From a virus (lineage: Duplodnaviria; Caudoviricetes): 64,000 nucleotides of DNA. Below the pieces are notes generated by a model. The model was not told where the DNA came from, did no database searches, and was given only the letters and a program-made list of their open reading frames with translations. Position numbers and translations under genes: made by a program. This document shows positions 8,041-54,196 of the stretch, piece by piece; position 1 is the first letter of the stretch, and each line of letters opens with the position of its first letter. The stretch lies in IMG/VR virus record IMGVR_UViG_3300032007_001727. One strand, written 5' to 3'.

Positions 8041-8411
8041 GGAAAGTAATACTTAGAGAGGAATCATATAATCATTTGATTAACGAAATAACTTATGGAA
8101 TGGTTGATAGGGCTTATGAAAGGTCTTATCAACTGTTCGATGACTTGTCCACTAGGTTTGACGAGTTCTATTCATCATTGAACGAGGCGTTATACAATTC
8201 AGAAGACGGTAATCCGTATTTAAGTCAAATCAAGGAACTTGCAGACAATATCCGTGATATCCTTATTAAAAAGGATTCACAGCGTGACAAGTTCAACAGA
8301 GAGGCATCAAAGGTCGATTTCCGTAAATTCAACAGAAGCGAGGAATCCAATGAGAATGACATGGATGACTTGGACTTGACTTATTTGCAGAACAAATATC
8401 CAAAGCATTAA
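8037..8411 (+). CDS. Hypothetical protein (putative virion-internal protein, N-terminal K-V-I-L-x-E motif)
   Basis: 124-aa ORF with ATGA overlap on the upstream gene. Confidence 0.65.
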   Translation: MRKVILREESYNHLINEITYGMVDRAYERSYQLFDDLSTRFDEFYSSLNEALYNSEDGNPYLSQIKELADNIRDILIKKDSQRDKFNREASKVDFRKFNRSEESNENDMDDLDLTYLQNKYPKH

Positions 8412-23361: not shown

Positions 23362-24306
23362 ATGTTAATGGATATTATTTTGAATAAACCGTCAGTTAAC
23401 ATCAACTTGGATTCTGACGGTTTATTTTCCTACCTATTTTTGAAATTGGCTTCATATAAGGGTCATATAAGCGGGTACAGCAACAGCAACGACCTAATCT
23501 TAAGTGAATACCCAATTGATGATTTATGGAGTGATTTCTATGTTGACTTGTTCACGCCGAAGCCGAATGCCACAACAATTGACCAACATGTCATATCTAA
23601 CTCAAACGGTATTTCCTTTCCGGAGACAAAAATAAATCCTCATATATTGATTGAGAACCATATTGCAAATAACCCCAAAAGTTATTGCGGCAAGTTCCCG
23701 TTTTCAACATCAATATTCATGTTGGGTCTCTGTGAAAGGGAAGGAAAGATTTCAGACGATGTCGGTCTTTTTGAAAACATTGACTATAAGAATAATTTTT
23801 TTGGTGGCTATGGTATTACATTGGCAGATTTGCTGCTACGTGCCGACGGATGCCTCCTAAACCGTTGCCAATATGAAAGGAATGTCTCATATTGGAAAGA
23901 CAAGATGATTGAGTTCTCCAACGGCGGTATTAATACCGAAAGGGTATTGGAATACTTGGTAAGGATGCCGAGGGAAGAGGCACAAGTAAAACACGGTATT
24001 ATAAGCAACGGTTACTTTAACTATGGGCTTTCAAAGGACGGCGGCTATAACGGACGCATTGACTTGGAAGAAAATCTTAGGCTGATAGTGAATTTGTTTA
24101 GGTCGATTTCAAAATACTTGAACGTTCTAGTAAAGGAATGCGAGACTACATTATATAAATATATAGGGGTGGTTCGTGATGCAAAATCAGACTTGACGGA
24201 AGATTTGTCATCGTTTGACACATATGCCTTCACTAGGAATAATCAGATAAAATATACAACAGACTTTAAATGTTGTGATAAAATAACTTTTAAAAATTTT
24301 AATTAA
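23362..24306 (+). CDS. Putative DHH-like phosphoesterase
   Basis: DSDG, VDL, IDQH, INP pattern resembles DHH motifs I-III. Confidence 0.45.
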   Translation: MLMDIILNKPSVNINLDSDGLFSYLFLKLASYKGHISGYSNSNDLILSEYPIDDLWSDFYVDLFTPKPNATTIDQHVISNSNGISFPETKINPHILIENHIANNPKSYCGKFPFSTSIFMLGLCEREGKISDDVGLFENIDYKNNFFGGYGITLADLLLRADGCLLNRCQYERNVSYWKDKMIEFSNGGINTERVLEYLVRMPREEAQVKHGIISNGYFNYGLSKDGGYNGRIDLEENLRLIVNLFRSISKYLNVLVKECETTLYKYIGVVRDAKSDLTEDLSSFDTYAFTRNNQIKYTTDFKCCDKITFKNFN

Positions 24307-24307
24307 T

Positions 24308-24676
24308 ATGTCCGTACAGTATTTTTTGGACAAGCCAATTGTAATTGGCGACTTGAAAAAAGTTGGTTTGGTGGTTGAGGACCACAGAAAAAATATGAAA
24401 CATCATCCGTTCACCGTCTCAAACGGTCAAGATACGGTGGCAATAAGTTCAATTGATGAAAATGGTGAAGGCAATGACGATGAACTCACAATAAAAGAGT
24501 TTGAGGGAAGATTCTCACACGGCGGAGCAAGCGTTATGCTTGAAATATGCGATAAACTTGATTGCAAGTTCATTACAGATGAGGATATTGATGAGTTGTT
24601 TTACACTGATGGTGATACCATTACGAAGGAAATGTACGATGATAGAACTGAGCGGTTCAGAGAATATCTCAAATGA
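24308..24676 (+). CDS. Hypothetical protein
   Basis: 122-aa ORF. Confidence 0.65.
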   Translation: MSVQYFLDKPIVIGDLKKVGLVVEDHRKNMKHHPFTVSNGQDTVAISSIDENGEGNDDELTIKEFEGRFSHGGASVMLEICDKLDCKFITDEDIDELFYTDGDTITKEMYDDRTERFREYLK

Positions 24677-24684
24677 GGTCTATT

Positions 24685-24717
24685 GGAGTTGACAATTGTC
24701 AACTCCTTTTTTTTTTT
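24685..24717 (+). terminator. Intrinsic terminator insulating the CRISPR locus
   Basis: ggagttgac-aatt-gtcaactcc palindrome plus a long T-tract. Confidence 0.85.
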
Positions 24718-24737
24718 GCAAAATAATTGTGATAATA

Positions 24738-24770
24738 TTTGTTTTTTTCAAATTTTTTATATATCTTTGC
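24738..24770 (+). promoter_or_regulatory. Bacteroidota -33/-7 promoter driving ncRNA + CRISPR array + effector
   Basis: TTTG 24738, TATCTTTG 24762. Confidence 0.8.
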
Positions 24771-24774
24771 ACCG

Positions 24775-24954
24775 TTAGTATTAAAACACTAGCCTACCCA
24801 CAGTGTAAGTGGGGACGTTAAGTCCGCGTACTAGGCTGTTGAGGAGTGCTTTAGTGAAAGTATCTTTCTCACGTCTAGGTTTAAACGGAAAGAAAATGTG
24901 CAAGCAGGACTTGCGCAACCATTATTAAAATTTAGTGGAAACATTTGATACAAC
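24775..24954 (+). ncRNA. Structured omegaRNA/tracrRNA-like scaffold with anti-repeat
   Basis: Stems: 24782-90/24845-53, 24791-96/24832-37, cccac/gtggg, ggac/gtcc, gtgaaag/ctttctcac, gcaag/cttgc. 24925-45 is complementary to the repeat 5' half. Ends in gatacaac, like the repeats. Confidence 0.6.
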
Positions 24955-24985
24955 TTATTGATTGTCATTCAATTACGTGTGGTGT

Positions 24986-25454
24986 GGTGTTAATTCCACT
25001 TATCTTAAGGTGGGTTACAACTACATCCCAATACTTTACTACGTGAACTTGGTGTTAATTCCACTGATTGTAAAGTGGATTACAACCTTAGAGAGGAATA
25101 ATAAAAATCCAAAGAAGGTGTTAATTCCACTGATTGTAAGGTGGATTACAACCAACTCCCAAAGAAAATACACAAAAAGTTTGGTCTTAATACCACTTAT
25201 TTTAAGGTGGATTACAACACATGAATTAAGTTCATAGATGGTGTTAATTCCACTCATCTTAAAGTGGATTACAACAATCTAAATGAATATCAACACCCGT
25301 GAAAATGGTGTTAATTCCACTGATTTTAAGGTGGATTACAACCTACCTATCACTCAGAATCAAGTGTTAATTCCACTGATTGTAAGGTGGATTACAACTG
25401 TCATTGGGAATTGCCGGTGTTAATTTCACTTATCTTAAAGTGGATTAATACAAC
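24986..25454 (+). CRISPR. CRISPR array, 8 repeats (36 nt, consensus GGTGTTAATTCCACT(G/T)AT(T/C)(G/T)TAA(G/A)GTGGATTACAAC), 7 spacers
   Basis: Repeats start at 24986, 25051, 25117, 25183, 25240, 25307, 25363 and 25416 (last one 39 nt, degenerate). Spacers are 29, 30, 30, 21, 31, 20 and 17 nt. Confidence 0.93.
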
Positions 25455-25490
25455 AATGTATTTGAGTTACAACAAATTAGATTGTCAAAT

Positions 25491-26993
25491 ATGACAAAAG
25501 AAAAAATCTTACGTGGTATTAAATACCGCTTTTTTCCAACGGAAAAACAAAAAACATACATTAACGCTATGTTTGGTGCAAAACGTTTTTTTTATAATAA
25601 AACGTTAGAAACCTATTTGTCCCTTGAAAAAGAGAACCGTGAAATAAAAGAGTATAATAGCACCCATGAGGATAAGAAGGAACCAATTGCGTATTCTTTG
25701 TTATTAAACAACGGAAAACCAAACCCAAACTATAGCAAAAACTCTCTAATACAAAGGGGATTTGATGGCTTTTATGGTGAAGTAAAAGATTATTCTTGGC
25801 TAAAGAATTATTCATCTACCATATATCAAAATGAGATTGCTAATTTGGGTAATTCTTGGAAGACTTTCTTTAAGTCCCTAAAGACGAAAAATAAAGTAGG
25901 AAAGCCTAAAATGAAAAGAAGGAATTCGGTTAATTCCATAACCTTGCAGAACACATCTTCCTTGAAGGACGGTAAGAATATTATGGATTGGAAGAATAGC
26001 CGAATAAAAACCCCGGGTTTTAATAAATTGGGTTGGTGCAAATGTGAATTGCACAGAAGATTCAAAGGCATGGTCAAGGAGACAACAATATCTAAGGATA
26101 TTGATGGTTCATACTATATTTCCCTAATAGTTGAGAGTGAAGGCTCATACCCACAGCCTAGCGGTGAAGTCACAAAGGAAAATACTATAGGTATTGATTT
26201 TGGCCTAAAGACACTTGCTACCATTTCCAATGCAAACGATGATAGCAATAACTATGAAAAGATTGTTCCATCATATTTTGCAAAGGTATGTGATTTGGAG
26301 AAAAAAATCAATAGGCTCAAGGCAAAGAGAACTCTATGTCAAGCAACACTGACAAGGGAGGGGTGTGAATCCAAGGTCTTAACCATAAAGCAGATGGATA
26401 AGGCTAGAACCAACAATAAAAGGGCTTTCAGTGGATACCATATCACCTATTCAAAAGGTTATGAGGAATATACCAAGAGGATAAACAAACTTACGGTCAG
26501 AATCAATAACATTAAGAAAAACTACACTGGTGAGGAGGCAAGTTCGATTGTAAATCGTGATTGTGCCAATGCAATCTGCGTTGAAACCCTTGATATAAGG
26601 GGCATGTCCATAAGAAATAAGACAAGGGAGGCCGAAGGCAAGAAGATTCCAAATAAAGTCAAAAGGAGAAGGAAAATGGCCCATAAATTAGGACAATTGG
26701 CCATCGGTAGTATAATCTCTCAAATAGAATATGACTCCATAAAGGCAGGAAAACACTTTATAAAGGCCCCGGCAAACTATGCTTCCACAAAGATTTGCAA
26801 TTGCTGTGGTCATAAACTTGAAGACATTGGACTAGATGTTCGGAAATGGGTTTGTCCGGTTTGTGGACAAGAGCATGACCGTGATGTAAATGCCGCAAAA
26901 AATTTGGCAAAGTATGCCTATGCCTTAAAGAATGACATCGATTTGAAGGATATTTACCACAAAGTTGAGGCTGAGGTAATGGCTGAACGATAA
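25491..26993 (+). CDS. tnpB: CRISPR-associated TnpB/Cas12f-like RuvC effector (~500 aa)
   Basis: IKYRFFPTEKQ..FG..RFFYN N-terminus; RuvC-I IGIDFG, RuvC-II CVETL, CNCC...CPVC zinc finger, RuvC-III DRDVNAAKN; 36 nt after the array; no tnpA beside it. Confidence 0.88.
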   Translation: MTKEKILRGIKYRFFPTEKQKTYINAMFGAKRFFYNKTLETYLSLEKENREIKEYNSTHEDKKEPIAYSLLLNNGKPNPNYSKNSLIQRGFDGFYGEVKDYSWLKNYSSTIYQNEIANLGNSWKTFFKSLKTKNKVGKPKMKRRNSVNSITLQNTSSLKDGKNIMDWKNSRIKTPGFNKLGWCKCELHRRFKGMVKETTISKDIDGSYYISLIVESEGSYPQPSGEVTKENTIGIDFGLKTLATISNANDDSNNYEKIVPSYFAKVCDLEKKINRLKAKRTLCQATLTREGCESKVLTIKQMDKARTNNKRAFSGYHITYSKGYEEYTKRINKLTVRINNIKKNYTGEEASSIVNRDCANAICVETLDIRGMSIRNKTREAEGKKIPNKVKRRRKMAHKLGQLAIGSIISQIEYDSIKAGKHFIKAPANYASTKICNCCGHKLEDIGLDVRKWVCPVCGQEHDRDVNAAKNLAKYAYALKNDIDLKDIYHKVEAEVMAER

Positions 26994-27004
26994 GGATAAT
27001 ATGA

Positions 27005-27040
27005 AAAAAAGAGCAACCATAACTGATTGCTCTTATATTT
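27005..27040. terminator. Probable bidirectional terminator between convergent genes
   Basis: A-tract, agagcaa...ttgctct stem, T-rich tail. Confidence 0.6.
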
Positions 27041-27049
27041 TAAATTTTT

Positions 27050-27640
27050 TTAATAATTATGGTTATTATAACCACCATAAAATCTTGGCTGTTCACCAAA
27101 CACAAACTGAACATCCCTTGTTGTGATACGCCCACTCCGTATTAACAAATCAACATCCCTTTCAGTGATGTCATATGGCTCTTTCCCCCCTTTTATCATT
27201 TTCGCCCATTTATCAAGTTTTTCTTCCCTTGACGAACCACTACGACGTGGTTCTTCCTTATATTGATTTTCAAATTCAAAATCAAGACATTTCTCTCTGT
27301 TTGCAGACCTAACTTGCTTAATTGAGTATTCAAGTTGTTCCGGCTCTACTCCGCAAATTCTTCTAACCTTATGTGGGCTACCAAAATCAATATCCGGTGC
27401 AACGTTTACTACCCATTTATCCGAATTGGCAATCTTACCATACCATTTATTTGCCCTAGGATTATATGCGTATTTTAAGGCTAATCGACGATTATAAAAA
27501 TATATATAATCTCCGGATACCATCGCAAACCACCTCTCACTAGAGTCGATATATCCATTTTCCTCTTTTAATAACTTTTTTACAGATTCTTTTACGATTC
27601 TGTGAAGGTCTGACTCTGTCAATCTAATTTTTCTTTTCAT
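27050..27640 (-). CDS. Hypothetical protein with MKRKIRLTESDLHRIVKESV leader (putative virion-internal protein)
   Basis: N-terminus shared with ORF 50757; TATTTATT motif upstream. Confidence 0.7.
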   Translation of the reverse strand: MKRKIRLTESDLHRIVKESVKKLLKEENGYIDSSERWFAMVSGDYIYFYNRRLALKYAYNPRANKWYGKIANSDKWVVNVAPDIDFGSPHKVRRICGVEPEQLEYSIKQVRSANREKCLDFEFENQYKEEPRRSGSSREEKLDKWAKMIKGGKEPYDITERDVDLLIRSGRITTRDVQFVFGEQPRFYGGYNNHNY

Positions 27641-27782
27641 ATTGTTTTATATGTATTTGTTGCCTTATTTTCTAATAAATATCAGCATATACAAAAAATG
27701 TTGTTGCCAAATTTTTTCCAAAATCATCATTTTAATACTATTTATAATAATAAAATGATTATTTGTTAGAAGAACTTAAAAT

Positions 27783-28937
27783 ATGGTAATAACTCAAGAA
27801 ATGAAGGACTTGTTCCAACTGACTAGACACATGTTAGGGGCACCAATCAGAACCGTTCAGTTGGAAGACGAACAACTCTGCGACTTATTAAATGTTGCTG
27901 TTGGTGACTATTCGGAAAAGGTTCAGAATTGGGTTCTTGAAACACAGTGGCTAAATTTACAGAACAGACACATGTTTCAGTTTCAGAACGCAAGTGAACT
28001 AGCCTACGCCATGACGGTTCGTACAATGGATTGGTCACGCGACTACTCTTATTGGTATAGCCGTGAGGTTGGACTTCAGCAACGTGGAAACTATGAACTG
28101 AAAAAAGACTTTTTTAGAATTGAGAAAGGTAAGCAAGTATATGTTATTCCTGCCGGTAGGGAGATAAATAAGGTCATGTACATTACACCGTCAACAACCA
28201 AGGCTGCGCTTTACGGTAATCTTGGAACACTAGATACCGGAATCGGAGGCGGATTCGGACAACTTGGAAACTTGGGATACATGGGAGGATTGACCGGATT
28301 CTACGTCGGAAACGTATATGACACGGCCCTCATGGCCGCTGACCTTAAATACAAGAATTCAATGCTTAGGGGTGATTTGGCCTACAAGGTAACTGCCGGT
28401 CCGAACGGTACACACCTTGTACACCTTATGTCGGTACCGGGTTCACCAAACATGGTAGGAGGCGTTGCTGCCGATGATACTTGGGGTTGGAGAAAATACC
28501 ACAATTGCATATGTTGGTATACCTATTATGACGTTTCAAACGGTACGAGCGATGACGTTACACAGTGCATGTTGGAAAACAAGGATGACATTGTCATCAC
28601 CCCGGACCAAGTACCGCTTGACAAGATGAGGTATGAACTTATGAACAACCCAACACAACAGATAATAAGAAGACTCTTGGTTGCTGAAGCAAAGATTCTG
28701 TTGGGTATTATCCGTGGTACATACAGCGGAGAAGTGAAGATACCGGAGGCCGATATGAAAATGGACTACTCCATTTTTCTTGAGCAAGGCAAGAGTGAAA
28801 AAGAGACAACATTGAATGATTTGAAGGAAAGGCTAGAGAGGATGTTGCCGTGGAATCTAATGAAGAATCAAGCGGACTTAAACGACCAACTGATAAACGT
28901 CTTAAAGAAAAAGCCGTTGGGGCTTTACGTTCGATAA
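27783..28937 (+). CDS. Neck/head-completion protein, T4 gp13-like
   Basis: LGAPIRTVQL N-terminus; AKILLG.IRG.YSG...P...E....L C-terminus; late motif upstream. Confidence 0.65.
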   Translation: MVITQEMKDLFQLTRHMLGAPIRTVQLEDEQLCDLLNVAVGDYSEKVQNWVLETQWLNLQNRHMFQFQNASELAYAMTVRTMDWSRDYSYWYSREVGLQQRGNYELKKDFFRIEKGKQVYVIPAGREINKVMYITPSTTKAALYGNLGTLDTGIGGGFGQLGNLGYMGGLTGFYVGNVYDTALMAADLKYKNSMLRGDLAYKVTAGPNGTHLVHLMSVPGSPNMVGGVAADDTWGWRKYHNCICWYTYYDVSNGTSDDVTQCMLENKDDIVITPDQVPLDKMRYELMNNPTQQIIRRLLVAEAKILLGIIRGTYSGEVKIPEADMKMDYSIFLEQGKSEKETTLNDLKERLERMLPWNLMKNQADLNDQLINVLKKKPLGLYVR

Positions 28938-29787: not shown

Positions 29788-31428
29788 ATGCTTATTCAGA
29801 GTAAGTACACAAAGATATTCCATTCAAAGGACTTAACTCGTCAGAAATATGATGAGTTATATGACTTTGCTGTGCTTATTCGAAACCATAAAAACACAGT
29901 ATCACAATACGTCAACGACAATCTCTTACATTTCTTGGAATACAATAAATTTCAATTCCTTAAGGAAATGAGAGAACGTTTCAAGAATGTAATACCAAGT
30001 TCATTTGATGCACAACTCTATACACAAGTATTCACTTGCTATCAGAATAAATTTGATGGAATACAACGCAAACTGATATTTGAAGTAAAAACATTTAAAG
30101 GGTTTGAGTTCTACAAGCGTGATACAAAGAAGAATAAGAAAGGTGACTTAAAGAAAGTAATAGCCGAAAAGAAACAAACACCATTATCTAACTGCCTCAC
30201 TTATCTTGCAAGATACGGAAATGAAAACACAATAGACTATATAAGTAGTAATATAGATGTTTGTGATGAGAAGAAACGTGAGTTCTATAACAACATATTA
30301 AGATGCTGTAATAAATTCGGATTTGAACGGTTGTATCGATTAGCATTGAACAAAAGACAACGTGTTGTTAAGCATTATTCTGAATATCCTATTGAATTCA
30401 AGTCATTAACGTTCAATGGTAGGTGTAGGAAGAAAAGGATAATTGACTACAACAGAAAGTTTGACTCTGTTATCAATTCATTCATAAGCCTTAGTGGTAT
30501 TGGACGTAAATCATTTGATATACCGATTACATTCAACAAAGGTTGGCACGGAAATATGAAGGATTACAGAAAGAAGAATCCCGATTACGAATATACAATC
30601 ACTTTCAATGAGAAAGAACATCAAGTAAACATCCATTTATGCAAGGATGGAGAAAGGTATATTCCCCAAGCCAATGGCAATACAATAGGTATTGATGTCA
30701 ATTGCAAGCATAACTTATTCAGCCTATCAAATGAAGCAACTTACGATTATGATAGAAAACTCGTCAATGATTTCTGTAAATTATCACTTGAAATTGACAA
30801 ACTTAAAGAAAATGATAAAGAATACAAGGTCGGTAAGCGTAAACAGCAGAAACTTGATACTCTCAAATCCAAGATGATTAAGTCTGAGCAGCAACTTATT
30901 GCTGATATGTGCAAGACGTTACAATCGCAAGGTGTTGGGCATATTGTGATGGAAGACCTTGATAATGGTTTCGGTAAGTGCTATGTTAAAGACAAGGATA
31001 ATGAGGATATTAATTACAACAGAAAGGTTAAGTTTCTTGGCTTGAGTAGTCTTAAACAAGAAGTTGAGCATATTGCAAGAAAATATGATATTGCGGTTTC
31101 AACTGTTCAAGCAAGTTATACATCGAAGATGTGTCCTATGTGTGGATGTATTGAGGATGAGAACAGACCAAACCAAGAGACTTTTGAGTGTATTAAATGT
31201 GGACATAAAGATAATGCAGACTTTAATGCTGCAAAGAACATAAGGAACAGAGTGCTCGTAACCGTGTTACAAGATTTGCTCTTAAAACAAAAGGATAATG
31301 GTGCTTTTGAGCCTAAGAAACTTAAACGTGAGAAGGTAAAGGAGGTATTGTTATCGTTTCGAAGAAGCCTACAAAATGTAGGAAGTGAATGTACAGAAAG
31401 TAGTGTGACTACTTTTGACTATGTTTAA
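29788..31428 (+). CDS. tnpB: Large TnpB-family RNA-guided nuclease (546 aa)
   Basis: IGIDVN, VMEDL, YTSKMCPMCG...CIKCG, NADFNAAKNI; long atypical N-terminus. Confidence 0.85.
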   Translation: MLIQSKYTKIFHSKDLTRQKYDELYDFAVLIRNHKNTVSQYVNDNLLHFLEYNKFQFLKEMRERFKNVIPSSFDAQLYTQVFTCYQNKFDGIQRKLIFEVKTFKGFEFYKRDTKKNKKGDLKKVIAEKKQTPLSNCLTYLARYGNENTIDYISSNIDVCDEKKREFYNNILRCCNKFGFERLYRLALNKRQRVVKHYSEYPIEFKSLTFNGRCRKKRIIDYNRKFDSVINSFISLSGIGRKSFDIPITFNKGWHGNMKDYRKKNPDYEYTITFNEKEHQVNIHLCKDGERYIPQANGNTIGIDVNCKHNLFSLSNEATYDYDRKLVNDFCKLSLEIDKLKENDKEYKVGKRKQQKLDTLKSKMIKSEQQLIADMCKTLQSQGVGHIVMEDLDNGFGKCYVKDKDNEDINYNRKVKFLGLSSLKQEVEHIARKYDIAVSTVQASYTSKMCPMCGCIEDENRPNQETFECIKCGHKDNADFNAAKNIRNRVLVTVLQDLLLKQKDNGAFEPKKLKREKVKEVLLSFRRSLQNVGSECTESSVTTFDYV

Positions 31429-35630: not shown

Positions 35631-36959
35631 TTACTCATCTTCGTTTTTTGACTTTTCTTTGTTGGCATCATCTTGTGGAAGTTCTCCACTTCTTTGTTTC
35701 AATACCTTGTCAGAATAATTGTTAAGCCTAGTTCTAGTATCCTTATTGCGCATTGTCTCAAGTTCACCTTTACTGTACCAATTGCTTTTATTTCCCAATG
35801 ACATCACTCGCTTCATTTCAGACGTTGTGAAAAGATTCTTAAGACCGTTTGCTGCGACAACACCGTGATACCTTACATATATGGTATACTGTTTCCCGGT
35901 TTTGTTTTGGTTGAAACATACACCACACCTATCACATGTGGATTCGTCACTCTTGCAAGGACACTTATAAAAGTATTCAATCCCACCGTTTTTAAGTTGC
36001 TTTTGACCCAATATGGGCTGTCCGTTTTTAACTTGGTCACCACCGGTCAAGTTATCATATGTCTCATCATCGACTGCCTTAAACTCTCTAGGCAAATCGC
36101 CTCTCTCGTTGCCGTTCCCGTGGTGTGAGTAGTTAATGGCAATATTATCTGAGGCTTTTGAGAAGTCAAGGTTCCTAGCAGTATAGGCATGTGAGTTTAT
36201 TTGATACTTCATTTTCATCTTTTTGGCGAATTTTGACCACAAGTCAACAGCCAACTGACAATGGAAATCACCACTCTCGTTGAGTCTTATTTCAGTTATC
36301 TTGTTCTCGGAACACTGTACCCTCAGCAATCTTTTCTGTTCATCCGTCATCTTACCACCCAACTTATAATTCCACTTTTCCAACTCTTGTCTATACAAGT
36401 TCTCAGAATAGGCATTTCCAAGTTGTATGTACATTTCAAGCAACCTAAAGAAGTCTTTATATGGTTTTTTGTTTCCGTGTTGATACTGCTGAAGCATTTG
36501 AGTGTGTACCAAGTCTCGTTTGAAGTTATTGTTCAATACTGAACCTTGGTCAATTCTTGAATATTGGTTTTCATCCTTCATTGCATAGCAAGCACCGTTT
36601 GTTATCTTGCATAGCCCAAGAAAATAGGATGGACACATTAAGGCCGAGGACATATTGACAATAAGAACATTTGCCGGAAGTTTCTTGTTTCCGGCAGAGA
36701 ACATGTTTTTAGGTATCTGCATAAAATCACCCTTTGGTTTTAACTTGTTCATCTGTTTTTGCTTTTCACGGGTCATATCATATATTTTTTCGGATAATTC
36801 GCCGAACACCTCTTGATATAACTCCCTCTGCTTTTTGTCAATTGCCTTCCAAATAGCCTTCATGTTCGTACCATTTGTATTTCCCCTTTTTAGGGCAACA
36901 TTTTCGGCTTCAGCCAATATTAAAGCATTATATTGTTTATTTGTGATGCTGATTCTCAT
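35631..36959 (-). CDS. GP88-like cysteine-rich phage protein
   Basis: GNKKLP...CPS....C.....CYA, IRLNESGDF, AYT, CPC...C..C..C. Confidence 0.6.
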   Translation of the reverse strand: MRISITNKQYNALILAEAENVALKRGNTNGTNMKAIWKAIDKKQRELYQEVFGELSEKIYDMTREKQKQMNKLKPKGDFMQIPKNMFSAGNKKLPANVLIVNMSSALMCPSYFLGLCKITNGACYAMKDENQYSRIDQGSVLNNNFKRDLVHTQMLQQYQHGNKKPYKDFFRLLEMYIQLGNAYSENLYRQELEKWNYKLGGKMTDEQKRLLRVQCSENKITEIRLNESGDFHCQLAVDLWSKFAKKMKMKYQINSHAYTARNLDFSKASDNIAINYSHHGNGNERGDLPREFKAVDDETYDNLTGGDQVKNGQPILGQKQLKNGGIEYFYKCPCKSDESTCDRCGVCFNQNKTGKQYTIYVRYHGVVAANGLKNLFTTSEMKRVMSLGNKSNWYSKGELETMRNKDTRTRLNNYSDKVLKQRSGELPQDDANKEKSKNEDE

Positions 36960-52885: not shown

Positions 52886-54196
52886 ATGTTAAGAGCGGTT
52901 AAGATAAGGTTGTATCCAAACAAGGAACAAGCAACAATGATAAACAAGTTGCTTGGATGCTGCCGTGTTGTCTATAATCAATGCCTTAACAGAAAGATAG
53001 AATCATATAAGAACGAAGGAAAAACTGAAAACTTGACAACATTGGGGCATTTCTTTCATAATGAATTGACAAAAGACCCGTGTTTCATATGGCTTAGAGA
53101 ACAGAATACAAAGGTTCTCAAACAAGCAATAATTGATATGTTGACAGCCTATAAGAATTTTTTTGAGCGACGCAGTGGATTTCCTAAATTCAAATCAAAG
53201 CACGATAACAAACAATCTTGTAGGTTTGAACTACACGCTATATCAAAACGCAATGACTATACAACATATCATTTGTCGCTTGCAAATATAAGAAACGTCA
53301 AATTCAGATGTAATGAAAAGTGTGCCCAGTACCTACAGAAGCATCACGACAATATAAGACAAGCAACGTTAACGAAGGTGCCTTGTGGTGAATACTACTT
53401 GTCAATATTGGTTGATGGTGATTTGACGCACAAAGTAAAAGAGACCGATGCTGCTGTAGGTATAGACCTTGGAATAAAGGACTTTGTGACAACAAGTGAC
53501 GGAGAAGTGTTCAATAATCTTCATTTCAAAAAAACAGAAACAAAGAAGATTAATAGGTTACAACGTCAGTTGTCAAAGAAAGAAAAAGGAAGTAACAATA
53601 GAAACAAGGCAAGGATTAAACTTGCTAAGTTATATAAAAAGATAAATGATAGGAAACAATACTATCTTCACGCTATAAGTAATTCACTCATTGACGAAAA
53701 CCAAGTCATATGTATGGAAGACTTGAATGTGAAGGGAATGGTCAAGAATCATAACCTTGCTGAAAGCATTTGTGAAATGAACTTTGGCGAATTTCGAAAA
53801 ATGCTTGAGTACAAGGCTCAGTGGTACAACCGAAAGATAGTATTTGTTGATAGGTTTTATCCATCAAGCAAGACGTGTCATAATTGTGGCTACATCAATA
53901 AAAGCCTCACATTAAATGATAGGCAATGGGCTTGCCCTCAATGTGGCGAAGTCATTGAAAGGGACTACAATGCAGCATTGAATATACTTGATGAAGGTTT
54001 AAAGATATTGGAGACAACCATAAACGTAGGGTGCTGTGAACCCGAACTCACGCTTGTGGACTACCCAACTACCGAAAGGTGGCAACACAGAAATGTGCTT
54101 ACCGTGGATGACAGACTCAGCAATGAGGTACTAAAAAGCAGTGGTAGGTTGAAACAAGAAGTTAATAATGAACAGACAAGTTTGTTCAAGTTTTAG
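52886..54196 (+). CDS. tnpB: TnpB RNA-guided nuclease
   Basis: AVKIRLYP, VGIDLG, CMEDL, PSSKTCHNCG...CPQCG, RDYNAALNI. Confidence 0.93.
   Translation: MLRAVKIRLYPNKEQATMINKLLGCCRVVYNQCLNRKIESYKNEGKTENLTTLGHFFHNELTKDPCFIWLREQNTKVLKQAIIDMLTAYKNFFERRSGFPKFKSKHDNKQSCRFELHAISKRNDYTTYHLSLANIRNVKFRCNEKCAQYLQKHHDNIRQATLTKVPCGEYYLSILVDGDLTHKVKETDAAVGIDLGIKDFVTTSDGEVFNNLHFKKTETKKINRLQRQLSKKEKGSNNRNKARIKLAKLYKKINDRKQYYLHAISNSLIDENQVICMEDLNVKGMVKNHNLAESICEMNFGEFRKMLEYKAQWYNRKIVFVDRFYPSSKTCHNCGYINKSLTLNDRQWACPQCGEVIERDYNAALNILDEGLKILETTINVGCCEPELTLVDYPTTERWQHRNVLTVDDRLSNEVLKSSGRLKQEVNNEQTSLFKF

Follow-up and report, generated by a model that had tools for sequence, protein, structure and literature searches.

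Compact CRISPR nucleases derived from TnpB attract interest as genome editors and document the origin of type V systems from transposons. The TranC systems reportedly use reRNA and crRNA guides alike. In TranC, the reRNA is split into a tracrRNA and a crRNA (Jin et al., Cell 2025, as relayed by 10.64898/2026.03.27.714800, PMC13565253 and PMC13639567), and these sources give an average of 513 aa with 36-nt repeats for clade 20 and about 414 aa for clade 9. The preprint (10.64898/2026.03.27.714800) took only nucleases located upstream of arrays and reports no consistent tracrRNA structure for clades 9 and 20. Many independent TnpB lineages have captured or generated arrays, and array birth through serial duplication of omegaRNA segments has been proposed (Altae-Tran et al., PNAS 2023, PMC10691335). 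In sigma-TnpB from the same survey, a tracrRNA fused to half a repeat re-creates an omegaRNA, which is a precedent for a scaffold tail that resembles a repeat. The omegaRNA of ISDra2 TnpB is itself a natural sgRNA, with a last stem that equals repeat:anti-repeat 2 (PMC10097598).

The locus described here lies in a 107-kb IMG/VR virus record, from which a 64,000-nt window (the whole stretch of DNA that was analysed) was drawn. The phage that carries this mini-CRISPR system is of rumen type. All parts of the unit are on the plus strand. An upstream gene of 122 aa ends in an intrinsic terminator (24685-24716; a 9-bp stem with a 4-nt loop at 24685-24706, then a T run), which is predicted to insulate the scaffold-array-nuclease unit from that gene. 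It is followed by an AT-rich promoter (24738-24769) consisting of TTTG (24738-24741), a 20-nt spacer and TAnnTTTG (24762-24769), boxes that suggest a putative promoter of Bacteroidetes type. The identical two boxes with the same 20-nt spacing precede the scaffold in three related loci (L001, L002 and L010) and the nuclease gene in a fourth (L181). From this predicted promoter, transcription probably starts near 24775.

The stretch directly after the AT-rich promoter (24775-24985) is non-coding and GC-richer. It comprises a scaffold core (24775-24916), whose fold and motif order are kept in 11 loci, a scaffold 3′ module (24917-24954) formed by the P5 hairpin (24919-24938) and a tail (24939-24954), and a 31-nt tract (24955-24985). 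The CRISPR array comes directly after (24986-25454), with eight repeats of 36 nt, the last one being 39 nt long. A 36-nt trailer (25455-25490) then abuts the start codon of a TnpB-family nuclease gene (25491-26993, 500 aa, designated P0001), so placed that the scaffold is found 700 nt upstream of the gene. Based on the list of open reading frames, none of the genes flanking the unit in the window was seen to be cas1, cas2 or tnpA, and neither cas1 nor cas2 was seen near any locus of the family. The P0001 gene is single-copy in the 107-kb record and differs from the three other TnpB-family genes found there. Two of those are in the window (near 31048 and near 53783) and one is outside it; of the four different genes, one only has an array beside it.

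P0001 matches the NCBIfam model guided_TnpB (1e-58) and the Pfam IS605 OrfB HTH and Cas12f1-like TNB domains. By sequence, ISDra2 TnpB is the best natural solved match (8e-28), followed by Cas12n (6e-14), LaTranC (1e-10) and Cas12f (about 0.2). The AlphaFold (AF2) model of the protein (pLDDT 78.6) is closest to ISDra2 (8h1j) and ISFba1 TnpB (TM by target 0.72-0.78). The next matches by fold are AsCas12f, Fanzor2 and LaTranC, with Cas12f at a TM by target of 0.57-0.61. Neither sequence nor fold places P0001 in the Cas12f branch. The RuvC triad (D236, E365 and D465) and both CxxC pairs of the zinc finger are intact in P0001 and invariant in its family. We classify P0001 as a TnpB-family nuclease, predicted to be RNA-guided, with intact catalytic residues.

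The family is small. A word-indexed search returned only about 11 close relatives of P0001 (45-58% identity, 486-514 aa), and two further clusters emerged when 1.84 billion representatives were searched with a profile. Below these there is a gap in the profile scores: from 357 bits (282 for a 234-aa fragment) they drop to at most 207, as with ordinary TnpBs. Together, 12 proteins from collections of 15 billion proteins and P0001 make a family of 13 (486-514 aa), which is monophyletic (support 100/100) and sits on a long branch. In IMG/VR and in metagenome contigs, protein-pattern scans were swamped by ordinary TnpBs.

Arrays in the window and in 15 fetched loci correspond to 13 distinct systems (the window, L001, L002/L003, L004, L010, L011, L181, L182/L183, L032, L188/L189, L190, L193 and L209). 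Every family locus with enough DNA has 36-nt repeats and spacers of about 30 nt. Wherever the DNA before the array is present (11 related phage loci), the scaffold is found directly 5′ of the array on the same strand. The position of the gene varies: the order is promoter, scaffold, array and gene in the window, L001 (on a 422-kb scaffold that has T4-like genes), L002/L003 and L010, and gene, scaffold and array in L181 and L182/L183. In L181, about 10 nt separate the stop codon from the start of the scaffold, and it is the gene that the family promoter precedes.

A search with the 5′ motif of the scaffold also uncovered a homologous scaffold and a 36-nt-repeat array after TnpB-sized proteins of 385-438 aa (L032, L188/L189, L190-192, L193, L209 and L215), which are only about 29% identical to P0001; L190 and L209 come from long phage contigs. 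The first scaffold pattern gave chance matches only. The second gave 23 matches in IMG/VR, 20 of them without a TnpB gene, and these we treated as chance. The scaffold-motif searches found no omegaRNA homologue of the scaffold without an array.

Several observations were made along the way in these loci. In L011, a truncated Y1 TnpA (C-terminal half, PF01797, 1.7e-16) is found at 1819-2019, 170 nt downstream of the family member P0008; this IS200-type remnant is a hint of IS200/IS605 ancestry or an unrelated insertion. An ordinary 375-aa TnpB is located 1.7 kb upstream of the CRISPR-linked one in L002. Directly after the array of L182 (5940-6120), GGATTCGAACC motifs typical of tRNA T-arms are found on the opposite strand, probably a phage tRNA cluster. 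Unrelated background TnpB loci also have short arrays beside the gene, with periods of 61-75 nt (mostly 72-73): L031/L096 (2694-2911), L072, L063, L092 and L131 (4512-4709), with the array upstream of the TnpB gene in L031 and L096; presumably, further lineages of V-U or TranC-like type are represented here.

The preliminary description of this DNA, made from the window alone, had likened the upstream RNA to an omegaRNA. Position and architecture agree with this view, the RNA starting right after the nuclease stop codon in L181, L032, L188 and L209. The window scaffold folds with an MFE of -52.5 kcal/mol (z -3.6 against shuffles). Its reverse complement also folds better than shuffles (z -3.4), hence the z-score alone gives no strand. 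The predicted fold begins with the H0 hairpin (24775-24792), the conserved CCTAC (24793-24797) and the H1 hairpin (24797-24813), which has UGUA in its loop. The conserved GTTAAGTCC follows at 24817-24825. P2 (24823-24826 with 24886-24889) encloses the P3 domain (24831-24879), and an A-rich link then leads to the P4 hairpin (24898-24916). The order H0, CCTAC, H1, GTTAAGTC-like motif, P2/P3, A-rich link, P4 and P5 is kept in 11 loci, and UGUA is invariant in the H1 loop across the scaffold loci.

The helices were compared by script, as MAFFT alignments threw them out of register. H1 is built from at least six arm sequences with pairing kept (CCCAC/GTGGG, CCGT/ACGG, CCAC/GTGG, CAGC/GCTG, CTAA/TTAG and CCC/GGG), and P4 from nine, different in every locus and all complementary. 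P2 covaries as well (TCCG/CGGA, TCCT/AGGA, TCCAC/GTGGA and CGATG/CATCG), as does the P5 stem in L032, L188 and L193. Lack of covariation in homologues had been named in advance as evidence against the element; covariation is seen in H1, P4 and P5 among the related loci. Based on this comparison, 24775-24954 is predicted to be a structured, conserved non-coding RNA. An Rfam search of 23500-28000 (E <= 10) returned chance matches only, with no CRISPR-DR and no known scaffold family. The core itself resembles the repeat, direct or antisense, significantly in no locus.

Some candidate features of the fold were set aside. The likeness of H1 to the repeat hairpin in the window, as if H1 were a diverged repeat, is at chance level (p 0.22). 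A long-range helix closing the 5′ and 3′ ends, seen in the window MFE and in L001, is unsupported across loci (Fisher 0.70). An alternative P2, pairing GTTAAGTC with GGTTTAA, is possible in three close loci only.

The repeats are imperfect palindromes over their full length and fold alone into end-to-end hairpins, with termini that covary (GTTGT..ACAAC or GCTGT..ACAGC). The window array has spacers of 29, 30, 30, 21, 31, 20 and 17 nt, and no two of its eight repeats are identical, the last one carrying a 3-nt insertion. With three spacers of just 17-21 nt and repeats that all differ, the array looks decayed. In the relatives, repeats are identical and spacers uniform (29-31 nt); degeneration is limited to repeats at the end away from the scaffold. 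The repeats of the window, L002 and L004 (36 nt, starting with GTTG or GGTG, ending with ACAAC and separated by 30-nt spacers) resemble the type VI-B (Cas13b) repeats of Bacteroidetes. If this likeness holds, the phage arrays might rely on host adaptation proteins in trans.

No array spacer matches the phage record at 20% mismatches or less. Spacers 2 and 7 match their own genome over 13 and 12 nt from base 1 (window 8052-8064 and 35792-35803, respectively). Self-targeting by these spacers was rejected: two of about 19 sites with an 11-mer match start at offset zero, against about 1.2 expected, which is chance level. A match of 25222-25260 to phiX174 is weak (E 0.01-0.5) and was taken as chance.

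Next, we considered whether the 3′ module is an anti-repeat or a degenerate repeat. The segment 24925-24945 had been described as able to form about 20 bp with the 5′ part of the repeat, and it can indeed be drawn in this way. A degenerate direct copy would also be complementary, because the repeats are palindromic over their full length. In the window, the last 69 nt of the scaffold form a best duplex of -20.6 kcal/mol with the consensus repeat, against -14.4 +/- 3.1 for dinucleotide shuffles, which is marginal (p about 0.03-0.05). The whole 214-nt scaffold of the window is indistinguishable from shuffles in its pairing with the repeat. Whole-scaffold RNAduplex pairing with the repeats, tried as a candidate measure, was rejected, since it outdid neither shuffles nor non-cognate repeats. 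Only a test limited to the segment after P4 (about 70 nt) brings out the signal. In the window, the proposed duplex is thermodynamically about equal to the partners' own folds (-11.1 and -8.1).

The complementarity becomes convincing over 11 homologous loci together, not in the window alone. Across these loci, the last 70 nt or so pair with the cognate repeat better than dinucleotide shuffles do (Fisher p 1e-6), and in six of the 11, the window included, none of 13 repeats pairs better than the cognate one (binomial 7e-5). Aligned locally with the repeat's reverse complement, the segment scores significantly (Fisher p 4e-4), versus 0.067 when it is aligned with the repeat itself, or 0.45 without L209, whose P5 hairpin copies the repeat hairpin directly (direct p 0.002). 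In every locus the duplex uses the repeat from nt 1 to about 30 and leaves the last 6-8 nt free; in the window, 24917-24954 is predicted to pair with repeat nt 1-29. The departures of L001 from perfect complementarity are G:U-compatible transitions. In L001, L193 and L209, the complementary stretch is located downstream of P5 and reaches the 5′ end of the repeat. The cognate duplex is no better than shuffles in L032 and L193, and separate hairpins are preferred in four of six loci folded in cis.

The anti-repeat is favoured because of the shuffle test, the test of the cognate repeat as best partner and the excess of antisense over direct alignment. The caveat of the preliminary description, that the segment might just be a degenerate repeat, is accordingly disfavoured, the direct signal (p 0.07) being driven by L209. 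At family level, the data support the 3′ module as a predicted anti-repeat, and P5 also appears as a conserved scaffold helix in its own right. The last 40 nt or so of the scaffold co-vary with the cognate repeat. This co-variation, the conserved position 5′ of the array and the antisense excess support a tracrRNA-like scaffold derived from an omegaRNA. The earlier suggestion of a tracrRNA for the array thereby gains ground through the family, while remaining marginal in the window taken alone.

The 31-nt tract had been proposed as "spacer zero", the target-matching part of a natural single-guide RNA. Exactly 31 nt (24955-24985) do separate the scaffold from repeat 1 (24986-25021), and the scaffold does end in gatacaac (24947-24954). 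The likeness of this end to the repeat end loses its value as evidence for a guide, since the repeat termini are inverted repeats and gatacaac complements the 5′ end of the repeat. A tail of ACAAC or GTAAC type followed by exactly 31 nt is found in the window, L002 and L188, with 27 nt in L209 and 36 nt in L032. The distance from the best duplex to repeat 1 ranges from 5 to 47 nt in the relatives. A conserved block is common to L181 and L182 just before repeat 1, and the equivalent tract forms long, strong hairpins in L032 and L188. The 31 nt match neither the 107-kb phage record (<=20% mismatches) nor GenBank phages, and IMG/VR contains no exact copy of the first 20 nt. A working spacer zero is thus disfavoured: these searches found no target, and in relatives the tract varies, folds or is conserved. 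To judge from these sequences, a linker or leader is the most likely role of the 31 nt, which are possibly a relic of an ancestral guide position. A simple alternative is that the anti-repeat pairs in cis with repeat 1, with the 31 nt as the connecting loop and the whole as a natural single guide for spacer 1.

The end of the scaffold is duplicated around the array. The tail and the first 13 nt of the tract (24942-24967) recur at 25459-25487 in the trailer, directly after the array and just before the nuclease start codon (23/28 identical, p <= 0.001). The same linker/trailer duplication was sought in six other loci: the window alone is significant and L182 is marginal (p 0.04). L001 and L010 show a local likeness of linker and trailer that is non-significant. 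The duplication could be a footprint of array origin or exchange. It fits array birth by duplication of an omegaRNA 3′ end (PMC10691335), a fit that does not by itself establish guide use today.

A contact between the scaffold and the repeat end had also been suggested, with GTTGA placed between an inner and an outer stem and pairing with the terminal CAAC of each repeat. GTTGA is present at 24838-24842. The predicted fold puts it inside the P3 stem, and the GTTG/CAAC pairing is at chance level across relatives and is not conserved. GTTG occupies different structural places in the window, L002 and L182 and is absent from L032. We rejected this pseudoknot: both ACAGC-ended loci are without GCTG, and L032 keeps CTGCGG together with ACAAC.

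A better candidate for the contact, from the sequence comparison, is UGUA/UACA. The repeats have an invariant UACA at positions -6 to -3, which would face the UGUA that never varies in the H1 loop. All ACAAC loci have G immediately 5′ of UGUA and A at repeat position -2; in both ACAGC loci these two bases are swapped. We tentatively propose that the free repeat bases (UACA and the purine) may dock on the H1-loop UGUA as a pseudoknot. We lean against rather than towards this docking, because it rests on invariant bases and on one purine swap, which counts as one evolutionary event. Of eight loci, just five retain the neighbouring pair. In ISDra2, the pseudoknot uses positions -2 to -6, with -3 to -5 paired and -2A meeting a G non-canonically (PMC10097598). 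The proposed H1-loop pseudoknot would be like it in lying just 5′ of the guide with a purine-purine pair at -2.

Overall, we hold with moderate confidence that 24775-24954 serves as the guide-scaffold RNA of a phage-borne, TnpB-derived mini-CRISPR, an intermediate of TranC / V-U type, with its 3′ module acting as the anti-repeat. The scaffold, the 31-nt linker, the eight-repeat array and the nuclease mRNA would probably be made as a single transcript from one host-type promoter. By analogy with TnpB and its omegaRNA, the scaffold core would be held by the small nuclease. The 3′ module (24917-24954) would pair with about the first 29 nt of a repeat, either in cis with repeat 1, the 31 nt then forming the connecting loop, or in trans with later repeats. 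The resulting tracrRNA:crRNA pair would be topologically like an omegaRNA cut open in its last stem, and the last 6-7 nt of the repeat would remain free beside the spacer. We infer transcription, processing, pairing and cleavage of the unit from its sequence. A transcript with a single scaffold and eight repeats fits awkwardly with a tracrRNA.

Other explanations of the same element were weighed against this one. That the scaffold is also a complete omegaRNA-like single guide, its tail replacing the repeat end and the 31 nt being a guide hard-wired beside the array, seems unlikely to us. It would account for a repeat-like tail followed by a spacer-sized tract, with exactly 31 nt again in L002 and L188, and for the copy of the tail and 13 nt after the array, as expected if the array grew from the omegaRNA 3′ end and its guide. 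The reported use of reRNA as well as crRNA guides by TranC would suit it too. Against it, the tract found no target in the phage record, in GenBank phages or, for the exact first 20 nt, in IMG/VR, and the repeat-end likeness of the tail follows from its pairing with the repeat 5′ end. Five loci (L001, L010, L181, L182 and L190) have no such tail, or a distance far from spacer length; moreover, the block conserved before the repeat in L181 and L182 is unlike spacers and the tract hairpins of L032 and L188 are unfavourable for a guide. It is rather improbable, in our judgement, that no repeat:anti-repeat pairing takes place, P5 being a fixed hairpin homologous to the repeat hairpin and the crRNA joining through the pseudoknot and protein contacts. 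Such a hairpin would agree with palindromic repeats that each fold alone with covarying termini, with a P5 conserved independently of the repeat in L001/L010 and in L032/L188/L193, with the direct repeat copy in L209 and with the preference for separate hairpins in cis. It is hard to reconcile with an antisense similarity over the 11 loci that exceeds a direct one owed to L209, or with complements that lie downstream of P5 and reach the repeat 5′ end in L001, L193 and L209.

An RNA outside the effector complex, that is a CRISPR leader, a 5′ UTR or a regulator of array transcription or spacer uptake, is very improbable. The only evident promoter is there, the position is leader-like, and in relatives the repeats adjacent to the scaffold are the best conserved and the distal ones degenerate. 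Yet some 145 nt of covarying helices are not known in leaders, in L181, L032 and L188 the element comes after the nuclease stop and lacks its own promoter, which is the omegaRNA arrangement, and TnpB-sized nucleases need a scaffold of about 100-150 nt (PMC10097598). Finally, we consider it unlikely that the locus is a snapshot of array birth, with a "unit zero" and a terminal unit flanking the array and a scaffold that would be omegaRNA and tracrRNA at once, serving a hard-wired cis guide as well as acquired spacers. If this were true, an omegaRNA 3′ end and its guide would have been duplicated, and both kinds of guide would be used from one transcript.

Under the favoured guide-scaffold explanation, the conserved scaffold with its boundaries, promoter and candidate anti-repeat, defined over 11 phage loci, is the information needed for reconstitution. 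Both gene orders, gene-scaffold-array and scaffold-array-gene, are found inside one family. Palindromic repeats and a long scaffold have been proposed as marks of alternative evolutionary routes (PMC10097598); their occurrence together here makes the splitting and duplication models directly testable.

By description, and as read from its sequence, the window unit belongs to the published TranC / type V-U class. The kind of system is therefore already published, and the conserved scaffold of this family addresses the published tracrRNA gap for similar clades. As in TranC, a compact TnpB-like nuclease is stably tied to a short array and the guide would correspond to an omegaRNA split in two; TranC itself is described with 32-38-nt repeats, about five repeats and some phage-borne members (CauTranC9). 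By size and repeat length alone, the 500-aa family resembles clade 20 and the 385-438-aa relatives clade 9. The match of P0001 to LaTranC (E 1e-10) is confined to the C-terminal RuvC/zinc-finger part. The window differs from the TranC preprint set in having array and scaffold upstream of the gene, and repeats that are palindromes over their full length.

ISDra2 TnpB (8h1j, 8bf8; PMC10097598) is the best match both by sequence (8e-28) and by fold (TM 0.73 by target). Its omegaRNA is likened to our scaffold by position and architecture, not by sequence: both are multi-stem scaffolds of similar size, and relatives have a scaffold that starts at the gene's 3′ end. Unlike ISDra2, the unit has an array in place of one guide, an upstream scaffold and about 95 extra residues in the protein, and it apparently lacks TnpA and transposon ends. 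It also departs from the IS200/IS605 OMEGA arrangement, an omegaRNA at the tnpB 3′ end with a single guide, as the relatives with gene-scaffold order carry arrays too. With Cas12f (V-F) the unit shares a miniature nuclease and short arrays that come without adaptation genes; it would also share a long tracrRNA pairing through its 3′ end with the repeat (R:AR-2) and last repeat bases that pair internally (R:AR-1, pseudoknot). The protein, however, is much closer to TnpB, the repeats are palindromic, and scaffold and array adjoin on what is presumed to be one transcript. In the V-U survey (PMC10691335), arrays are almost always downstream of the gene, whereas this family has both orders. The likeness to V-U branches is one of description and points to no named branch. 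What is unusual here is that scaffold and array lie upstream of the gene, that a single transcript is presumed, and that palindromic repeats go together with a long scaffold.
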